A DNA stretch of 42,639 bases, taken from IMG/VR virus record IMGVR_UViG_3300045988_020191, positions 1 through 42,639 of that record. The stretch is one strand, 5' to 3'. The translations under genes were made by a program, and so were the position numbers. Shown piece after piece: positions 1 through 42,639 of the stretch; position 1 is the first letter of the stretch, and each line of letters starts with the position of its first letter. The DNA comes from a virus. The notes under the pieces were generated by a model. That model did not search any database, had not been told where the DNA came from, and worked only from the letters and a program-made list of their open reading frames with translations.

Positions 1-119
1 CGGTCTCACATTGTCCGGGCGCTACCCGGCCTCTGGCAGGGACGGTTGGGAATCGAACCCACCCAAGCGGTTTTGGAGACCGCCTCGCCAGCCTTGGAAC
101 ATTCGCCCCTAAATGCCCC
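1..119. repeat. 119-bp direct terminal repeat, copy 1 (identical to 42521..42639)
   Basis: Read directly: bases 1-119 recur base-for-base at 42521-42639, exactly at the two window ends. This fits a circular or terminally redundant phage genome assembled with an end overlap. Confidence 0.95.
34..110 (-). tRNA. tRNA-Trp(CCA)-like element, 77 nt, non-canonical
   Basis: Minus-strand read: AGGGGCG AA UGUU CCAAGGCU GGCG AG GCGGU CUCCAAA ACCGC UUGG GUGGG UUCGAUU CCCAA C CGUCCCU G CCA. It has a 7-bp acceptor stem (one G-U), T-loop UUCGAUU, GG in the D-loop, anticodon CCA and an encoded CCA end. However, the D-stem is mostly G-U, the T-stem has a G-A mismatch, and there are two extra unpaired nucleotides. 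Confidence 0.6.
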
Positions 120-361
120 CGCTGGGCCACATCGTTGAGAGGTGCGCGGGGTCCTGTGCCGCATGAGAGGTGCGACCTCTCGGCCCTGATCGCGGGCTGC
201 ATCGTGCGTGCGGCATATCGCGGGGGCGGTGTGAGAAGATGAAAAGCACCGCGCCCCGCTATGGCGCAGGAGGTAAACGCCATAAATGAGAGAACCGCAA
301 AGGCTTTTACACCTCTGCGATTCTATTATCTCATAAGCAAATGGCTTTTTAAGGCCAACTT
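111..361 (-). ncRNA. candidate structured non-coding RNA, 5' part (continues across the circular junction into 42169..42553)
   Basis: No credible ORF on either strand. Nested helices: 286-291/329-334, 292-303/312-323, 260-266/278-284, 220-231/247-259, 157-163/209-215, 165-171/175-181, 117-122/146-151. The 12-bp helix 292-303/312-323 closes with two G-U pairs only on the minus-strand transcript. Confidence 0.4.
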
Positions 362-673
362 TTAGTCATCGAGCAGCCCATAGTTCCGTGCTACGCACTT
401 GATAAAATCGGTATGCCATCGTCTCGCCGTTCGGTCGGAACAGCTGACCGCCATCGCCGCCCCTTCGAGCGTGTGTGTCTTGTCCCAAAACACAAGGCGG
501 ATAAATCTCAAGCGCTCTTCGCCGTCTTGCATTGCCCTTGTTTCGCTCACCGCTTTTCGCACAGCGTTGTTTTCTAACAAAGCCACTCCATGCAGCTCCT
601 GCTCTCGGTTGGTGGCATAGCGGCGGATAATGGCTTTTACATAGCCCCACCAACTGTAGCGCGGCTTACTCAT
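362..673 (-). CDS. RinA/ArpU-like late transcriptional activator (sigma-70 region-4-like HTH)
   Basis: ORF track, 103 aa. The C-terminal CSDRTARRWHTDFIKCVARNYGL looks like a region-4-type HTH. It is the last gene of the early operon, immediately upstream of the packaging region. Confidence 0.55.
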   Translation of the reverse strand: MSKPRYSWWGYVKAIIRRYATNREQELHGVALLENNAVRKAVSETRAMQDGEERLRFIRLVFWDKTHTLEGAAMAVSCSDRTARRWHTDFIKCVARNYGLLDD

Positions 674-1145
674 GGCGCGCTACCTTTCTCTTGAACCACG
701 CCCACAGGTTGCGCCACGGATGGGCTTCTGCGTAGGTAGCGCGCCCAATCTCCAAAGCGGCTCTATCCGTCATTTTAGTTACGTCATTCCGCAGCGCGTT
801 CTTTTCAGCGGCAGAATACGTCAACTCTGCATTCGCCCGCCCAAGCGCCGCCTCAGTGTCAGCGAGCTTATTTCGCAGCGAATCCGCGTCCGCTTTCAGG
901 TTTGCGATCTCGTTCTCGCGGGTGATGGCCTCGCCGTTCATTTGGTCAAGCTTCTCAGTCAGCACGGCGTTCGAATGCATCTTTGCCATCAAATTATTTC
1001 GCAGCGCAATCGTTTTTGCCGTTTGGGATTTCAGTTTTTCAGCCAGCTCTTCATTTTCTTTTTCCTGCGATTTAAGCCTTTCGGCGGCTTCCTCCACCAT
1101 CTTTGCCATCTGGTCTTTGGTGTACTTCTTCACATTGATGCTCAT
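666..1145 (-). CDS. coiled-coil protein, unknown function
   Basis: 159 aa with a K/E/A/L-rich heptad-like sequence. It overlaps the next gene by 8 nt (operon packing). Confidence 0.6.
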   Translation of the reverse strand: MSINVKKYTKDQMAKMVEEAAERLKSQEKENEELAEKLKSQTAKTIALRNNLMAKMHSNAVLTEKLDQMNGEAITRENEIANLKADADSLRNKLADTEAALGRANAELTYSAAEKNALRNDVTKMTDRAALEIGRATYAEAHPWRNLWAWFKRKVARHE

Positions 1146-1306
1146 AATTTGGCTCCTTTCATTCGTAGCTGTTCTTCCCGCCCCCGGTCGCTCACGATGC
1201 TTACGACCTTGCAGTCGCCGTATCGCTCGATATCCATGGCGATGCGCTCCTTGATGCCCTGCGCATCAGCGGCGGGGACGTTGGCTTTAATCGTGATCGT
1301 CAGCAT
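1142..1306 (-). CDS. hypothetical small protein (54 aa)
   Basis: Internal ATG at 1306 (MLTITIKANV...) preceded by GAGGAAAAG. The longer track ORF would overlap the upstream gene. Confidence 0.45.
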   Translation of the reverse strand: MLTITIKANVPAADAQGIKERIAMDIERYGDCKVVSIVSDRGREEQLRMKGAKL

Positions 1307-1505
1307 GGTTGTTCTTTTCCTCAAGCTTTTCGCGCAATTCCAGTACCATGTCCGCATAGCATTTTTGGCACAAGATAGCTTGCTCATTTCTTCCGTTGAA
1401 GCGAATCCTCGTATAGTCGTAATACGTCTTGAAGAACAGCCTTTTTTTTACTGCAACTCTGGCGCCACACACATCGCACGTTCTTTCTGCAAAATACTCA
1501 GCCAT
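1287..1505 (-). CDS. hypothetical zinc-ribbon-like small protein (72 aa)
   Basis: ATG at 1505 (MAEYFAERTCDVCG...) preceded by GGAGGGAGG. It has CxxC ... CxxC spacing. Confidence 0.55.
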   Translation of the reverse strand: MAEYFAERTCDVCGARVAVKKRLFFKTYYDYTRIRFNGRNEQAILCQKCYADMVLELREKLEEKNNHADDHD

Positions 1506-1507
1506 AA

Positions 1508-1774
1508 TTATTCCTCCCTCCGCTCGCCGTAGCTGCAAAAATCGTCTGGCTCTACACACACCGCATCGCCGGAATACCCGCGGGCATTTGCCTTTGACTC
1601 CGTATGTAGGTAACACAAACCGTTTGGGTGGTTGCGATAGTGCTTGCAGTCCTTGCACCGCGTCACTACCACAGCATCAACGGTGGGAGCGTGTCGAATT
1701 TCGTCAAGTGCAAGAAGGTCTTCATCGGATATTCCAAACTGGTCTTCCAATAAATCAGCGTCAATCAAGCGCAT
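1508..1774 (-). CDS. hypothetical Cys-rich protein (88 aa)
   Basis: ATG at 1774 (MRLIDADLLEDQF...) preceded by GGAGGTGA. The product has a CKDCKH motif. Confidence 0.55.
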   Translation of the reverse strand: MRLIDADLLEDQFGISDEDLLALDEIRHAPTVDAVVVTRCKDCKHYRNHPNGLCYLHTESKANARGYSGDAVCVEPDDFCSYGERREE

Positions 1775-2114
1775 CGTTGTCACCTCCGTCCATCTTCGCG
1801 CCACAGTTGGGACAGTATAGCTTGCGATAAGTCCGTTCTCTACCACTTTCGCAAATAGCAACAACTTCATCGCAGTTTGTACAATACCAATCGCCGTCCG
1901 CATCTTGTTCCCACCGCCCATGCACCACCGGCGCAACGTCGGTAAGTATCTTAACTATTTTATATTCAGCTCTTCGCTTCATTCCAATTTCTGCTGCGTG
2001 TGGAAATAACTTCGTTATTTTCCCTCTCTCTAAGTCTGCGGATGTTCTATTGTAATTTAAAAAAATTACATCATCTCCGATATTAAGGGTTTGCCCCAGA
2101 AAGTCAGTTGCCAT
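1761..2114 (-). CDS. hypothetical protein with C-terminal zinc ribbon (117 aa)
   Basis: ATG at 2114 (MATDFLGQ...) preceded by AGGAGGGC. The C-terminus has CTNC ... CPNCG. Confidence 0.55.
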   Translation of the reverse strand: MATDFLGQTLNIGDDVIFLNYNRTSADLERGKITKLFPHAAEIGMKRRAEYKIVKILTDVAPVVHGRWEQDADGDWYCTNCDEVVAICESGRERTYRKLYCPNCGAKMDGGDNDALD

Positions 2115-2283
2115 TGTTAGCCCTCCTGTTCCACTTTTCGACGATAAATTTGGGTTCGCTATATACGCCACTTTCAAAATCACACTCTGGGCAGTATATA
2201 TAGCACTCTTTCGGGCTGTTGCCATCTACTGTTTCAAGTATTGCTTCTCCGCCGCAGAACGGGCAAGGTTTCAGGTCAAACAT
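2104..2283 (-). CDS. lar: Lar-family restriction alleviation-like protein (59 aa; below the ORF-track cutoff)
   Basis: Hand translation: MFDLKPCPFCGGEAILETVDGNSPKECYIYCPECDFESGVYSEPKFIVEKWNRRANNGN. The KPCPFCGG ... C..C ... WNRRA pattern is typical of Lar-like proteins. The ORF overlaps both neighbouring genes by 8-11 nt. Confidence 0.6.
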   Translation of the reverse strand: MFDLKPCPFCGGEAILETVDGNSPKECYIYCPECDFESGVYSEPKFIVEKWNRRANNGN

Positions 2284-2803
2284 TCTTCATCGCCTCCAAT
2301 GCTTTCCCCGCCTCTTCGCGGGTAAGAAACACAGTCTTGCCGATTTCATCAACCGGTACGCCGAAAATGGATTTATCAACAAACCCGGCTACAATATCCC
2401 ATTCAATGAATGTACAAAACAATTCCACGCGAATTGCCTTTACTCGGTATTCGCTTATGGTTTTTCGACTTGTAACCTCATACACCGTATCTCCCGCCTT
2501 GCACGGCGGCACCACCAGCCGCCCGTCCCTGTCGGCTTCAGCCAGTTTCTCCAACCGGTCAAGATCGCAGTTTCGGCACAGTTGGCGAAGCGTCTCTGCG
2601 GCTTCGTGATCCATGTCGATTTCCTCCGGTTCCCGTTCCGTATCCTCATATTTCACCAGCCGGTCTAACAAACGATTGCGGCAATACAGTGCAGTGCAGT
2701 CAACCATCGGCTTACCATGCTTACCCGTCCAATCCGCTTTGCACTTCTCGCAGTCCATCATTGCCTGTCCATCGTTGTCGCGCTTCGTCAGTCGTTCCAT
2801 CAC
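2276..2803 (-). CDS. hypothetical protein (175 aa)
   Basis: ORF track. ATGA-type overlaps with both neighbours. Cys-rich N-terminus. Confidence 0.6.
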   Translation of the reverse strand: MMERLTKRDNDGQAMMDCEKCKADWTGKHGKPMVDCTALYCRNRLLDRLVKYEDTEREPEEIDMDHEAAETLRQLCRNCDLDRLEKLAEADRDGRLVVPPCKAGDTVYEVTSRKTISEYRVKAIRVELFCTFIEWDIVAGFVDKSIFGVPVDEIGKTVFLTREEAGKALEAMKNV

Positions 2804-3159
2804 TCCGCCTCCTGCATCCAGAACTCACGGCGGCAATCTTCACATTTACGGTCTGGGTCTGCGCACAATCCGTTACTGTCTCTATCTCTATAAGCAGCAG
2901 AAATAGACGTTGGGCAAAACTGCATTAAACCATTCACATCAAGGCTTGCCTCCGGATAATGCTCCAGGAACACGCTTTGCCGTGTCTTGCGCGGATGTTC
3001 CTTGGACCACTTCTCGACGGTAGCGACAATTCTTTCGCACTCTTCATTGGACGTGCTGGTATTGAGGCCACAATTACCTCTCTCAAGCGGGCATCCGCCA
3101 CAACCCTTGTAGCTGTTACACATTCTTTTGCGTTCTTTCAAAAATTCAAAAGCGTCCAT
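2800..3159 (-). CDS. hypothetical Cys-rich protein (119 aa)
   Basis: ORF track. Contains CGGCPLERGNCG and CEDC motifs. The ATG at 3159 abuts the upstream stop. Confidence 0.6.
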   Translation of the reverse strand: MDAFEFLKERKRMCNSYKGCGGCPLERGNCGLNTSTSNEECERIVATVEKWSKEHPRKTRQSVFLEHYPEASLDVNGLMQFCPTSISAAYRDRDSNGLCADPDRKCEDCRREFWMQEAE

Positions 3160-3939
3160 TTATGCCTCCATTCTGTCGATCACTTTTCGAATCACATCGC
3201 CGCCGTAAGCGTCTTTCGTCAACTCCAAAAACTCCGTAAGCGTCATCATGCCATGCTCGAGGTCAACACCGTGGTCACGGGTGAACTGCTTTCGTCCCAT
3301 GTCACACGATCCGGTCAAGCGGTGGTGCCAGTCGTAAAAGTACTGCGTCGGATACGTTTTTTCGCGGTCTGTCTCACTCAAGAACATCTCAATGCGATCA
3401 TCTTCCGGCATATCATCAAATAGTTTGTCTCGCAACGCCTCCATTGCTTCGCGCAGCGTTTCGCCGTGTGCGAAAATGTCGCCCTGCTTGACGATGTAGC
3501 ACGGTGTGGTCGTCAAATCATTGTTCACGATCGCTCCGTGCGCAATGTTGCCGCACACGGAACGAATCAGCGTATTCACACCGTCAATTCGATAGACCGG
3601 CTTTCGGTTGAAGCGTTTAATGCCGGAGCCGTAGCCGGAGCCGTCGCCGGAGCCGTAGCCGTAGCCGTAGCCGTAGCCGTAGCCGGAGCCGTAGCCGTCG
3701 CCGTAGCCGTAGCCGGAGCCGTAGCCGGAGCCGTCGCCGTAGCCGGAGCCGGAGCCGTAGCCGTCGCCGTAGCCGTCGCCGTAGCCGTAGCCGGAGCCGG
3801 AGCCGTAGCCGTCGCCGTAGCCGTCGCCGTAGCCGTAGCCGGAGCCGTAGCCGGAGCCGTCGCCGTAGCCGGAGCCGGAGCCGTAGCCGTCGCCGTAGCC
3901 TACAAGCAAAAAGTCTTTAATACTCTCAGCAAGCGTCAT
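3160..3939 (-). CDS. protein with ~93-aa Gly-Tyr-Gly-(Asp/Ser) low-complexity N-terminal region and a globular C-terminal domain
   Basis: ATG at 3939 (MTLAESIKDF...) preceded by AAGGAG and overlapping the upstream stop (ATGA). It is followed by (GYG[DS])n, then IKRFNRKPVYRIDG... Confidence 0.65.
   Translation of the reverse strand: MTLAESIKDFLLVGYGDGYGSGSGYGDGSGYGSGYGYGDGYGDGYGSGSGYGYGDGYGDGYGSGSGYGDGSGYGSGYGYGDGYGSGYGYGYGYGYGSGDGSGYGSGIKRFNRKPVYRIDGVNTLIRSVCGNIAHGAIVNNDLTTTPCYIVKQGDIFAHGETLREAMEALRDKLFDDMPEDDRIEMFLSETDREKTYPTQYFYDWHHRLTGSCDMGRKQFTRDHGVDLEHGMMTLTEFLELTKDAYGGDVIRKVIDRMEA
3622..3900. repeat. in-frame hexanucleotide tandem array (GCC-GTA / GCC-GGA / GCC-GTC), ~46 units
   Basis: Read directly. 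The array encodes the GY-rich tract. A 60-nt block (3715-3774) recurs exactly at 3841-3900. Confidence 0.9.
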
Positions 3940-40569: not shown

Positions 40570-41804
40570 GCGATAACTCCCATTCTTCGGCTGATCGGCT
40601 CGACTGCATAGCGCAATGCGTCGATCAAATGGTTCTTTTCATCAGGATACCCGCTGATAAAGTTTCCATCTTTGTCGCGGTCGTATTCGTAGTTTACAAA
40701 CTCGTCGTAAGCGTGCGGCGTGCGCTTTCGGTCTATAACGATCTTCCTCCGCTGTAGCCACTTCATACCGTATGCGACGCTGTCAGGCCCCTTTACAGCA
40801 GCTTTCGCGGGCAATCCCATAGCCCGTAAGTCCGAAATACTCTTAGGCTCTGCGCTGTCGCAGATGATATATGCGCCAGTGTAGCCTTTTTCCTTAATCA
40901 TGCCAGCGCTCTGCTCGTTGGAAAGCTTGTTTTGATATATTTCGTCTATCAGGTAGATCGTCTCCCGCGTCTTGTCGTAATGCACGCGGATAAAAGCAAA
41001 CGGGTCGGGGAACCATCCGAAGTCCACTCCCTGATAGATGCGATCAAAGCTTTCGGTTTCTTTGTCGGCGATCTCCCGCAGTTCCAGCTTATCGAACACA
41101 TTGCCGCCAGTGCCGACCGGAATGCCGAGATATTCGTGCTGATACGCCCGCTCATCTGTCTCTTTGAGGTGTTCCGCTTCTGCAAGAAACTGTTCGCCCA
41201 ACCATTCAGGCGGTGCTTGCAGATACGTTGACTTGTGGCACAGGCGGTCAGCCCGTTCCTCCAAACTGTCCTTGTTCGCCCAGTTGTCACGCGAGATCGG
41301 CGGGTTATAGCTCTCAAAGTTCCAGAAAACCGAGCCACCGCGCATGGTGGACTGCAAAATGTTTCGGATTTCCGCGCGTCCGGCAAATTGGTCTTTTTCT
41401 TCAAAGTGCGTCACCGCGATATACCCAAATGGCACTTTGATGGATTTAATCTTCATCGGGTCGTCGGCACCGCGGAACATGATTTTCTGTCCGGTAGGCT
41501 TGTAGATCAGCTCCATTGGGGAAACCTTTGCTTCCCAGTATGCCGCCATGCCCAGTTCGCCGATTGCCCAGATATACTGTGCATAGACACTATCGCGGAT
41601 CGTGTTTGCCACCTTGCGCAGAACAAGCGCATGAGTGTTTGGATTGTGGATCAACAGCAGCGGCACAAGCACCGACACTGTCGAGGACTTCAACGAGCCG
41701 CGCCCGCCGCTGAAATCATAATGCGTATGCCCGTGCTGAAATACATCACGCGCCACGCCGTAAAACGCAGGGCCGATTTTCTCTGACAGGTGGATTTCAG
41801 ACAT
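40566..41804 (-). CDS. terL: terminase large subunit (PBSX/Terminase_3-like)
   Basis: ATG at 41804 (MSEIHLSEKIGPAFYG...) overlapping the terS stop. Walker A-like segment GGRGSLKSS. Confidence 0.9.
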   Translation of the reverse strand: MSEIHLSEKIGPAFYGVARDVFQHGHTHYDFSGGRGSLKSSTVSVLVPLLLIHNPNTHALVLRKVANTIRDSVYAQYIWAIGELGMAAYWEAKVSPMELIYKPTGQKIMFRGADDPMKIKSIKVPFGYIAVTHFEEKDQFAGRAEIRNILQSTMRGGSVFWNFESYNPPISRDNWANKDSLEERADRLCHKSTYLQAPPEWLGEQFLAEAEHLKETDERAYQHEYLGIPVGTGGNVFDKLELREIADKETESFDRIYQGVDFGWFPDPFAFIRVHYDKTRETIYLIDEIYQNKLSNEQSAGMIKEKGYTGAYIICDSAEPKSISDLRAMGLPAKAAVKGPDSVAYGMKWLQRRKIVIDRKRTPHAYDEFVNYEYDRDKDGNFISGYPDEKNHLIDALRYAVEPISRRMGVIA

Positions 41805-42168
41805 CGATAACCACCTTAACGACGGAATCAACGCCCGTATTGTCTTGCTTATCGAACACGCCTGTATGCTTTGCCAGCATTTCGAGCGCCTTTAACTTAT
41901 TCGCATATTTCAAATCGCTTTCCGGCAAATCCGACGCCGGTCGGTCGGCGATTTCTTTCAGCTTCTCAATTACGTAGTCCTGCGTGACTTCCGTCCTTTT
42001 CTGCCTTTCTGCCTTTGCTTTTTGGATAGCAGCTGAAACGTTACCATTCGTAACTAACTGCCTACCTTTTTCAGCGTTCTTGTAACCGGCTCTCGCGGCG
42101 GCTTGAGTGGCATTTAAGTCCACAAGATATTCTTGTACAAACCTCTCTTGTTTTGCTGTTAATGGCAC
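41797..42168 (-). CDS. terS: terminase small subunit (P27/Terminase_2-like)
   Basis: GTG start at 42168 after GAGGTGGTGG. MPLTAKQERFVQEYLVDLNATQAAARAGY is the classic terS HTH start. Confidence 0.9.
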   Translation of the reverse strand: MPLTAKQERFVQEYLVDLNATQAAARAGYKNAEKGRQLVTNGNVSAAIQKAKAERQKRTEVTQDYVIEKLKEIADRPASDLPESDLKYANKLKALEMLAKHTGVFDKQDNTGVDSVVKVVIDV

Positions 42169-42553
42169 TCACCACCACCTCTTTTGTCGCATTTTTTTGC
42201 TACCAGCCCCCACCCCTTGGCCTTACATAGCAGACTTTACCCGCCCCGAAGGGCTACAACGCCGCCCACATTGGGCGTTATTCTTTTCACAGGTCCCGGC
42301 ATTGCAGTCCTGCCCTGCTTTAGCGCTTCAGGGAAAGTCCCCGTCACTCGCTGTGGTCTCCCCTTACGTGGCACCTATGCCGCATATTGGCCGTCTTGCC
42401 GCTTAAATTGTCACATCACCGATTGCTGCTTTACATACGCAGCACCATTACGCTGAGGCGGTTCCCTCCCACGGTGCAGTTTTCAGCGACCATTTTCATT
42501 TCCATGTGAGCCGCGACGACCGGTCTCACATTGTCCGGGCGCTACCCGGCCTC
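42169..42553 (-). ncRNA. candidate structured non-coding RNA, 3' part (downstream of the tRNA-like module, upstream of terS)
   Basis: No credible ORF. Helices: 42504-42510/42525-42531, 42535-42539/42545-42549, 42452-42456/42483-42487, 42424-42429/42439-42444, 42313-42317/42329-42333, 42258-42263/42274-42279. A GCCC-UUCG-GGGC tetraloop hairpin lies at 42243-42254. Confidence 0.4.
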
Positions 42554-42639
42554 TGGCAGGGACGGTTGGGAATCGAACCCACCCAAGCGGTTTTGGAGAC
42601 CGCCTCGCCAGCCTTGGAACATTCGCCCCTAAATGCCCC
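42521..42639. repeat. 119-bp direct terminal repeat, copy 2 (identical to 1..119)
   Basis: Read directly. See copy 1. Confidence 0.95.
42554..42630 (-). tRNA. duplicate representation of the tRNA-Trp(CCA)-like element at 34..110
   Basis: It lies inside the terminal repeat, so it is the same physical locus in the circular genome. Confidence 0.6.

Follow-up and report, generated by a model that had tools for sequence, protein, structure and literature searches.

A modular array of small RNA cassettes, among them a probable orphan abiF-type hairpin just ahead of a tRNA gene, lies upstream of terS in a phage genome

The IMG/VR virus record IMGVR_UViG_3300045988_020191 was analyzed over its positions 1 to 42,639, a stretch referred to here as the window. 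The subject of this report is a 713-nucleotide (nt) non-coding gap within it, which runs across the circular junction from the stop of a gene for a 103-amino-acid (aa) protein (362-673, minus strand) to the GTG start of terS, the gene for the small terminase subunit (42168, minus strand). Positions 1-119 are identical to 42521-42639, so that the window is a circular contig with an assembler overlap. An earlier note on this DNA, called the original prediction below, delimited the gap as we do and proposed that it encodes one giant structured RNA; we conclude, with high confidence, that the gap is a modular array of small RNA cassettes. Two of these are at the center of this report: a hairpin, A3, that very probably belongs to the abiF family of antitoxin RNAs, as judged from its sequence and pairing, and a conserved four-way-junction RNA, module C. 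The modules were named in gene orientation (A1, A2, A3, tRNA slot, B1, B2, C, D1, and D2), and in that order the region contains the following features.

362-673, minus strand: gene for a 103-aa regulator, weakly RinA-family-like; upstream flank
325-352, minus strand: promoter-like site, TTAAAA, a 16-nt spacer, and TG-n-GATAAT (extended -10), at the start of A1
220-323, minus strand: A1, three hairpins (292-323, 261-283, and 220-259) in minimum free energy (MFE) and centroid folds
157-215, minus strand: A2, a predicted three-way junction closed by UGCCGCA/UGCGGCA (fold prediction)
116-151, minus strand: A3, the orphan abiF-type hairpin, ending 6 nt before the tRNA (Rfam alignment and covariation)
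34-110, minus strand: tRNA-Trp (anticodon CCA), 77 nt, with an encoded CCA end, atypical (ARAGORN); repeated at 42554-42630 through the overlap
42476-42553, minus strand: B1, directly after the tRNA CCA, with hairpins at 42535-42549 and 42504-42531; its first 33 nt are the same as window positions 1-33
42387-42475, minus strand: B2, a variable hairpin plus the conserved GUGACAAUYUAAGCGGSAAGACGG (five distinct full copies)
42292-42386, minus strand: module C, a 94-nt four-way junction or "cloverleaf" (MFE, alifold, covariance model, and covariation)
42258-42291, minus strand: D1, hairpin AACGCC-CAAUGUG-GGCGgcGUU after an A-rich stretch (centroid fold; 4 distinct copies)
42169-42257, minus strand: D2, the terS-proximal leader, with a GCCC-UUCG-GGGC hairpin (42243-42254), a G-rich stretch, an A-run, and the Shine-Dalgarno sequence GAGGUGG before the GTG at 42168
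41797-42168, minus strand: terS, small terminase subunit, 123 aa, GTG start, matching Terminase_2 from residue 3; downstream flank

The modular nature of the gap emerged from its relatives. A terS-based scan of IMG/VR yielded 80 loci with a terS 68 to 97% identical to that of the window, and the gap upstream of terS measured 483 to 1,092 nt in the 24 loci in which both flanking genes could be placed. Pieces of the window recur among these loci in differing orders and subsets, with sharp breakpoints, and the modules, of about 35 to 170 nt, are exchanged independently of each other. The tRNA slot is occupied by tRNA-Trp, -Gln, -Thr, -Met, -Ser, -Ile, -Ala, or -Gly or by a tRNA-like element, or it is empty. 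The distance of A3, B, and C from terS varies from -180 to -750 nt, and the same modules also precede terS genes of other families (GP3_package, Sf6-type, and P27). Among GenBank phages, two from human feces share different pieces of the region by blastn: MT835513 keeps A and D around a different tRNA and middle, and MT836871 possesses B and C in a different order. As far as is known, the host belongs to the gut Clostridia, to judge from related arrays in metagenome-assembled genomes (MAGs) of Oscillospiraceae and Clostridiales. Counts from exact-word scans of sequence collections, given below, refer to the matches listed, and the proportions derived from them are therefore those of samples.

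The A3 hairpin, 35 nt in length, consists of a 6-bp stem (P1), a 1-nt bulge, a 3-bp stem (P2), an 11-nt loop (CUCUCAACGAU), and a 5-nt internal loop on the 3' side. The Rfam abiF model, RF03085, aligns to it with a 36-nt match in which the loop is identical to the consensus over 13 nt (CCUCUCAACGAUG); this 13-mer occurs exactly once in the window, at 130-142 on the minus strand. The same hairpin, with a P1 of 6 bp, a bulge of 0 to 1 nt, a P2 of 3 bp, an 11-nt loop, and a 3' internal loop of 5 to 6 nt, was present at 108 of the 120 IMG/VR occurrences of the 13-mer listed, and stem sequences differ widely among them. A MAFFT alignment of all abiF-type hairpins had its 3' strand out of register and was set aside in favor of a gap-free subset. 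The 23 distinct gap-free hairpins are 100% paired, a figure that follows a pairing prefilter, so that the weight rests on the compensatory changes: seven of the nine pairs have changed on both sides, none of 500 shuffles reached the observed value, and the slid controls collapsed. The abiF model scores this subtype too low, since it failed to detect, at E values of up to 10, an A3-type copy beside a real Abi_2 gene (viral contig L283), whereas orphan hairpins of sister subtypes score 44.9 to 59.8 bits and exceed the Rfam cut-off.

Elsewhere, hairpins of the A3 subtype, with the same flanks (ACAGGAC...GACAU), directly precede Abi_2 genes, at a distance of 20 to 30 nt. The viral contigs L283 and L414 to L419 (seven in all) have a TTGCCA/TATAAT promoter followed by ACAGGAC, the hairpin, and GACAUUUUUUU, by a U-run, and then, after some 20 to 30 nt, by the gene for a 283-aa Abi_2 protein, which matches PF07751 with an E value of 6e-57. 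An Abi_2 homologue starts at most 250 nt away in 23 of the 102 distinct metagenomic A3-type contexts listed; the encoded proteins are 39 to 78% identical to the AbiF protein of L283, and all but one of the contexts (22 of 23) carry the U-run, which is also found in 21 further contexts that gave no Abi_2 match. In the window itself, tblastn with two AbiF proteins detected no Abi_2 homologue, and the A3 hairpin is therefore an orphan, followed by the tRNA and then terS, not by an abiF/Abi_2 gene. No convincing promoter of their own was found for the orphan A3 copies, and the protein genes downstream of orphan hairpins are often terS, of three families, or encode HNH endonucleases. In one prophage (L417), an A3-type abiF system lies between an HNH gene and terS.

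The L417 locus (IMGVR_UViG_648276723_000003, 778-3600) also carries a RelB/DinJ-like and YafQ/RelE-like pair beside the A3-type abiF locus, and the terS that bounds it is of the P27 type; these protein families were assigned by inspection of the translations. Other phages bear the orphan cassettes at this very hot spot. Another viral contig (L235), in which a Terminase_2 terS follows an orphan A3-type hairpin, also has a GP20-b RNA (RF03003; 1065-1126, minus strand) that scores 52.3 bits against a gathering cut-off of 36.2. Within the window, on the minus strand, GAGAGGU in A2 (175-181) is complementary to ACCUCUC on the 5' side of the A3 loop (131-137), and the loop could be hidden by an alternative pairing of A2 with A3. 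A2 and A3 each contain the decamer GCACCUCUCA, the two copies being some 31 nt apart.

The 77-nt module that had been described as tRNA-like is identified by ARAGORN as tRNA-Trp(CCA). It gave no match to RF00005 at the gathering threshold; its best covariance model match was to tRNA-Sec, at 36.8 bits and below the cut-off of 47, and Bacillus phage Mater and Phaeobacter phage MD18 have tRNAs about 83 to 90% identical to it. By eye, several features are odd: the nucleotides A8 and C14, the many G-U pairs of the D stem, an anticodon stem of 6 bp, and one additional nucleotide between the T and acceptor stems.

The spacing between hairpin and tRNA is held within narrow limits well beyond the window. 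A tRNA gene starts 4 to 9 nt after P1 in 21 of the 101 distinct viral loop contexts listed, and these 21 are among the 26 contexts in which a tRNA of any kind lies no more than 500 nt away; the tRNAs are Arg-TCT in ten cases, with Gln, Thr, Trp, Asp, Ser, and Tyr also represented. Among the 102 metagenomic A3-type contexts listed, 36 adjoin a tRNA called by ARAGORN (15), a tRNA-like element missed by ARAGORN (9), or module C, E, or F (12). The position about 7 nt after A3 is always taken, in the relatives defined by terS, by a tRNA, a tRNA-like element, or module C, E, or F. The arrangement extends to unrelated phages, some of them cultured: in Mycobacterium phage Bromden, the hairpin precedes tRNA-Lys within an array of ten tRNAs (L420, 1501-1617), and in Synechococcus phage S-CREM1 an annotated abiF small RNA lies 4 nt before tRNA-Gly, beside the manA and wcaG RNAs (L423, 1505-1617). 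The hairpins of these two phages and of a third contig (L184) exceed the Rfam cut-off and stand within, or at the start of, large tRNA arrays of unrelated phages; abiF-type hairpins were also found in Omegavirus-type mycobacteriophages, Aeromonas T7-like phages, Salicola phage CGphi29, and Acinetobacter phage Acj61.

A number of further observations concern the elements that follow such hairpins. In L184, the hairpin (35-71) heads an array of about 30 tRNAs. A group of tRNA-like genes (GCAGAYGURGCUCA...) whose anticodon arm is aberrant or truncated, mostly missed by ARAGORN, was seen in L013, L022, L091, L003, and nine metagenome contexts, and in L024 some 50 nt are inserted into a tRNA; all of these stand directly after a hairpin. 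Module E, found in L010, L020, L055, and L057 about 90 nt after an abiF-type hairpin, is tRNA-like (GCGGCGU...GGCGG-CUCAAUA-CCGYC-UCGCCGY-NCCA), with an acceptor-like stem and a T arm of canonical size, in which 5 bp carry a loop of 7 nt; it ends in CCA and is without normal D or anticodon arms.

Module C is the second element for which comparison of relatives supports a defined fold. The junction is closed by a stem of 8 bp and has three arms, of which one ends in a GNRA-type tetraloop, one is long and contains an internal loop, and one has 4 bp and a loop of 7 nt; the caps are of the GUAA/GCAA type, the internal loop is AGUGAC/GAAG, and the 7-nt loop is GGCAGGA. The MFE folds of 20 variants agree with RNAalifold on this structure. 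A covariance model (R1) scores the window copy at 106 bits (E value of 3e-26) and finds module C in 26 loci, 25 terS relatives and MT836871. Two MAGs carry it, one of Clostridiales and one of Oscillospiraceae, and a pattern scan placed it in at least 116 to 118 distinct IMG/VR contexts, with about 90% identity kept. Across 41 distinct sequences, 97% of the alignment cells are paired, and eight pairs have changed on both sides, compared with 1.5 ± 1.1 in shuffles (0 of 500 reaching the observed value); only one helix is without such a pair. Since divergence is low, we regard this covariation as supportive, not overwhelming. The closing stem is present in every copy, and in 94 of the 116 contexts listed (81%) it is followed by an NNCCA tail (N-CCA).

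Module C takes slots otherwise used by tRNA genes, including the one directly after A3. It matched no Rfam family, had no match in the tRNA clan, was not called by ARAGORN, and shows neither a T-loop nor a D-loop consensus. Its surroundings are non-coding arrays in every case, and no partner protein gene adjoins it. A search for divergent copies with the covariance model, over the 66 loci and 95 genome loci, recovered close relatives only; the 95 genome loci are stretches of the genome collection that matched a 16-base pattern, of which two fit the model and the rest are chance matches. Module C is a well-conserved and apparently undescribed family of structured RNA, present in more than 100 gut phage contigs, which may already be among the 10,006 unnamed candidate csRNAs predicted in IMG/VR and catalogued in PMC10690425.

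Among the remaining modules, A1 starts with the promoter-like site at 325-352, and no other sigma-70-like site turned up in the region. The TGnGA(T/G/A)AAT element of this site is kept in relatives while neighboring bases vary, and the site may act as the late promoter. The first hairpin of A1 (292-323) is terminator-like, with 14 pairs and a U-rich tail. A1 occurs as a block in 33 related loci and is almost invariant, so that covariation is uninformative; A2, found in 32 loci, is nearly invariant too and is separate from A3 in L036 and L091. In an alignment of 20 distinct copies of B1, the hairpins are followed by an invariant single-stranded stretch, GAAAUGAMAAUG..GCUGAAAACUGC. The first B1 hairpin shows one-sided changes only; in the second, pairing is kept and the apical part is replaced (in L083, the stem UGUGAG/CUCACA has become CUGAG/CUCAG). 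B1 also appears in a distant terS lineage (L083) and, in L091, after module C. With A1 and A2 too invariant and the changes in the first B1 hairpin one sided, these structures stay predictions. In the 118 contexts listed, no sequence precedes module C more often than the 3' part of B2. D1 has a terminator-like score on the opposite strand, and D2 lies directly before the start of terS in most relatives, its 32 distinct copies carrying the tetraloops UUCG, CUCG, AUCG, UGCG, and AUAC over a constant stem. A1, A2, B, and D may take part in the control of the late operon or in packaging.

B1 also contains an inverted repeat, AUGUGAG..N13-17..CUCACAU (42504-42531, minus strand), with constant outer arms and a replaced center, followed by the invariant GAAAUGACAAUG..GCUGAAAACUGC; instead of forming an RNA hairpin, the repeat could bind a protein or serve as a packaging site. 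In L004, L014, L019, and L045, an insertion of about 290 nt, starting with the promoter-like ...CTTGACAACGCTTATCGGCGTAT, separates D2 from terS.

The flanking genes were assigned with unequal certainty. The small terminase subunit is well supported, by Terminase_2 (E value of 5.4e-23) and PHROG 51 (E value of 3e-32), and the profile matches of terL to Terminase_3 and of the portal gene to SPP1_portal are both solid. For the upstream gene, the label "RinA-like" had been used; the 103-aa protein does match PHROG 36, "transcriptional regulator," at an E value of 1.4e-5, but it reaches only 20.6 bits with TIGR01636 (phage_rinA), below the cut-off of 31.9, and has no Pfam match, so the label is weak. 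The general description of the gap was borne out: it has the same orientation as the flanking genes, on the minus strand; its GC content is 57.5%, against 53.0% for the genome; the table of open reading frames (ORFs) agrees that genes are closely packed elsewhere; and no ORF in the gap is credible. We listed the gap ORFs of at least 20 aa and found them to be R/P-rich shadows, to overlap the tRNA, or to be antisense, the longest three having no PHROG or Pfam match, and a hidden protein gene was rejected. The 119-nt exact terminal repeat resembles an assembler k-mer overlap, and the placing of the join inside the tRNA and a B1 hairpin is accidental and biologically meaningless.

The original prediction described the gap as dense in hairpins. 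Every helix that it listed exists at its place, including the C(UUCG)G hairpin, but the fold energy is barely better than chance: the MFE of the 713-nt RNA has a z score of -1.9 on the gene strand and of -2.1 on the opposite strand (20 dinucleotide shuffles each), and few long-range pairs remain in the centroid fold beyond local hairpins. The evidence for structure in the gap is comparative, not thermodynamic. That the whole 0.7 kb or so forms one large ornate RNA, whether ROOL, GOLLD, or a member of a new class, is favored by its length, the lack of ORFs, the GC content, the many local helices, the adjacent tRNA in a gut Clostridia phage, and the slight advantage of the MFE over shuffles; against this, the opposite strand folds equally well, and subsegments of 35 to 170 nt are kept, dropped, swapped, and reordered among relatives. 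A mosaic of independently moving modules is incompatible with a single conserved 0.7-kb fold, and the relatives do not keep the region as a unit.

Searches with known models point the same way. Since the window interrupts the gap, we used as the intact junction a metagenomic contig (L001) that carries exactly the terS of the window and in which the gap lies at 2288-3000 on the gene strand. The cmscan run over the window at gathering thresholds gave zero matches, and the Rfam models for ROOL, GOLLD, tmRNA, RNase P RNA, and introns found nothing in the uninterrupted junction; ROOL and GOLLD were absent both at gathering thresholds and at E values of up to 10. Scans in E-value mode (up to 10), over both window ends and L001 2200-3100, returned the tRNA, as tRNA-Sec, and the subthreshold abiF hairpin and nothing else. 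ARAGORN called no tmRNA in the window, and tmRNA, RNase P RNA, and group I and II introns were rejected, having neither an Rfam nor an ARAGORN match; ROOL and GOLLD were rejected for want of a model match and of any 500- to 800-nt element conserved as a unit, with a global fold z score of about -2 on both strands. Covariation in relatives was found for two small elements, A3 and module C, and for no large fold. With neither a covariance model match nor covariation of a large fold, the two grounds for refutation that the original prediction itself had named, the giant-RNA reading fails, and we now consider it very improbable indeed; what survives of it is that conserved, structured RNA stands beside a tRNA, in the form of small elements and not of a single large RNA.

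The relationship of A3 to a known antitoxin suggests what the array might do. AbiF is an RNase toxin of the HEPN type that is neutralized by RNA and has been proposed as the ancestor of Cas13; the abiF-motif RNA binds and neutralizes it in cis and in trans, as shown for RCd22 and PbAbiFr, and it is the structure of the stem, not its sequence, that matters (PMC12373285; PMC12737573). An RNA mimic of an antitoxin is known from phage PhiTE, whose pseudo-ToxI defeats abortive infection by ToxIN (PMC3475682). Our best reading, which we regard as evenly poised between right and wrong, is that the gap constitutes a late-operon leader of processed small RNAs in which the orphan hairpin mimics the antitoxin of AbiF. 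We envisage a packaging or late-operon leader that would have become a recombination hot spot, gathering exchangeable RNA cassettes, and in which the promoter-like site with A1 and A2 would be followed along transcription by A3, 6 nt, tRNA-Trp, B, C, and D. The array would be transcribed with terS or just ahead of it; RNase P would cut the 5' ends and 3' enzymes the 3' ends of the tRNA and the tRNA-like cassettes, freeing their neighbors. The tRNA would then double as a processing handle that releases the hairpin with a short 3' tail, besides supplementing or replacing a host tRNA, and the freed hairpin might keep the AbiF protein (Abi_2, HEPN RNase) of the host or of a prophage neutralized during infection. 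For a decoy function of A3 against AbiF, taken by itself, our confidence falls somewhat short of even.

Several observations weigh against this interpretation. A3 scores 18.1 bits against the RF03085 gathering cut-off of 37 (cmscan E value of 2.7 to 3), and the hairpin sets were picked by an exact loop and a pairing filter, which inflates the percentage paired. The promoter call is at chance level (0.8 sites expected), and an anti-defense RNA would be expected early, whereas the position of the array points to late expression. U-runs follow some of the sister hairpins, which could simply be terminators. The module C copy of the window ends in GGGAC, without CCA, and may be decaying. Finally, RCd22 of Clostridioides difficile needs two abiF motifs for full activity (PMC12373285), and the window has one.

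One alternative explanation is a passive hot spot of relics, with the tRNA alone functional, the hairpin a remnant of an abiF system that has lost its toxin, and module C a decayed tRNA. The occupation of the same HNH/terS hot spot by abiF systems, the strong mosaicism of the region, the missing CCA tail, and the defective anticodon arms of tRNA-like elements in relatives are all in keeping with decay. We nevertheless consider it unlikely, because the orphan hairpins stay paired through compensatory changes at five of six P1 positions around an invariant loop, because the 4- to 9-nt spacing to the tRNA recurs in unrelated phages with different tRNAs, and because module C, unlike a pseudogene, keeps its identity of about 90%, together with compensatory changes, over more than 110 contexts. 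Another alternative is late-operon control acting mainly in cis: a region between a regulator-like gene and terS, with a promoter-like site followed at once by a 14-bp terminator-like hairpin, an inverted repeat in B1 that could bind protein, and D2 conserved just before the start of terS in most relatives, might combine a promoter, a terminator or antiterminator under the RinA-like protein, terS translation, and a pac site, with the tRNA a passenger as in Stx phages. This accounts for A1 and D at best; A3, B, and C shift relative to terS and also stand ahead of GP3_package, Sf6-type, and P27 genes, and the A3 loop is common to AbiF antitoxins in phages with unrelated regulators. We judge this explanation improbable.

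The hairpin could also serve the tRNA, as a 5' leader that stabilizes the precursor or sets RNase P processing or transcription, with the AbiF systems having borrowed it or the reverse. The strict spacing and the hairpins that head tRNA arrays in several phages speak for this, but most tRNAs of the same arrays are without such a hairpin, the invariant 11-nt loop is a feature shared with the protein-bound AbiF antitoxin, and 75 of the 101 orphan-hairpin contexts listed have no tRNA within 500 nt; we think this account distinctly improbable. The antitoxin-mimic reading remains the one that we prefer.

To our knowledge, how phages escape AbiF is not known; a DNA region of phage sk1 reportedly protects against it, to go by the title of a report from 2000, the only precedent that we found. 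If the hairpin does neutralize AbiF, then many unannotated hairpins heading phage tRNA arrays, those of cultured mycobacteriophages and cyanophages included, would be anti-defense genes, and part of the answer to why phages carry tRNAs would be that the tRNA is the processing handle and companion of a decoy RNA. A wider proposal, which we advance tentatively and hold to be rather doubtful as a whole, is that orphan AbiF-antitoxin hairpins just upstream of tRNAs may represent a widespread RNA counter-defense of phages against AbiF/Abi_2, in gut Clostridia phages, mycobacteriophages, cyanophages, and others, with the tRNA serving as the RNase P handle and perhaps replacing host tRNA that has been cleaved, and that module C and its sister cassettes may be further decoys for other tRNA-directed or RNA-guided defenses. 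For annotation, the lesson is that a long stretch free of ORFs ahead of terS in a gut phage is an array of cassettes and not one RNA.

Phage tRNA arrays are already known to contain structured RNAs, and an abiF RNA has been annotated in cyanophage S-CREM1, its role having been left open (PMC9964418). In the searchable literature, we found no proposal that orphan abiF RNAs are phage decoys and no mention of their fusion to tRNAs, an absence that is not proof. By the same measure, what is new here is a subtype missed by Rfam, the fusion of hairpin and tRNA across unrelated phages as opposed to the toxin-linked copies, and module C.

Among known systems, the abiF motif (RF03085, with AbiFr and RCd22, a type III-like toxin-antitoxin system) is the closest to A3, with the same 6-bp P1 and 3-bp P2, the same loop, and a 3' internal loop of 5 to 6 nt. 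The hairpin of the window differs in being followed by a tRNA and not by a U-run and a toxin gene, in a genome that has no abiF gene, in being a single copy where RCd22 has two motifs, and in its subthreshold score. Pseudo-ToxI is likewise the RNA half of a system carried without the toxin, and the action proposed is the same; there, however, the toxin is ToxN and not the HEPN protein AbiF, the RNA consists of tandem 36-nt repeats and not of a single hairpin, and the function that we propose here is inferred. Module C shares with tRNAs, non-canonical phage tRNAs included, a four-arm cloverleaf, a terminal stem of 7 to 8 bp, the N-CCA tail in most of the copies listed, and the use of tRNA gene slots, and differs from them in having neither an anticodon loop nor a T- or D-loop consensus and in a third arm that is a long helix with an internal loop; the copy of the window, moreover, lacks the CCA.

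ROOL and GOLLD lie near phage tRNAs. The manA and wcaG RNAs of cyanophages and the abiF RNA of S-CREM1 (PMC9964418) are likewise structured RNAs among phage tRNAs on the same strand; no model for manA, wcaG, ROOL, or GOLLD has a match here, the genome that has the present array in its terS leader is small, of a temperate type, and siphovirus-like, and the cassettes are different ones, namely, the A3 subtype and module C. As regards the layout of the whole region, the nearest counterpart is in the lambdoid Stx phages, whose late-operon leader comprises Q, PR', tR', tRNA genes, and the late genes. Both leaders place a regulator, a promoter with a terminator-like hairpin, a tRNA, and late genes on one strand; in the window the regulator is RinA-like and not Q, and the leader shows no evidence of antitermination and also has RNA cassettes that are not tRNAs.

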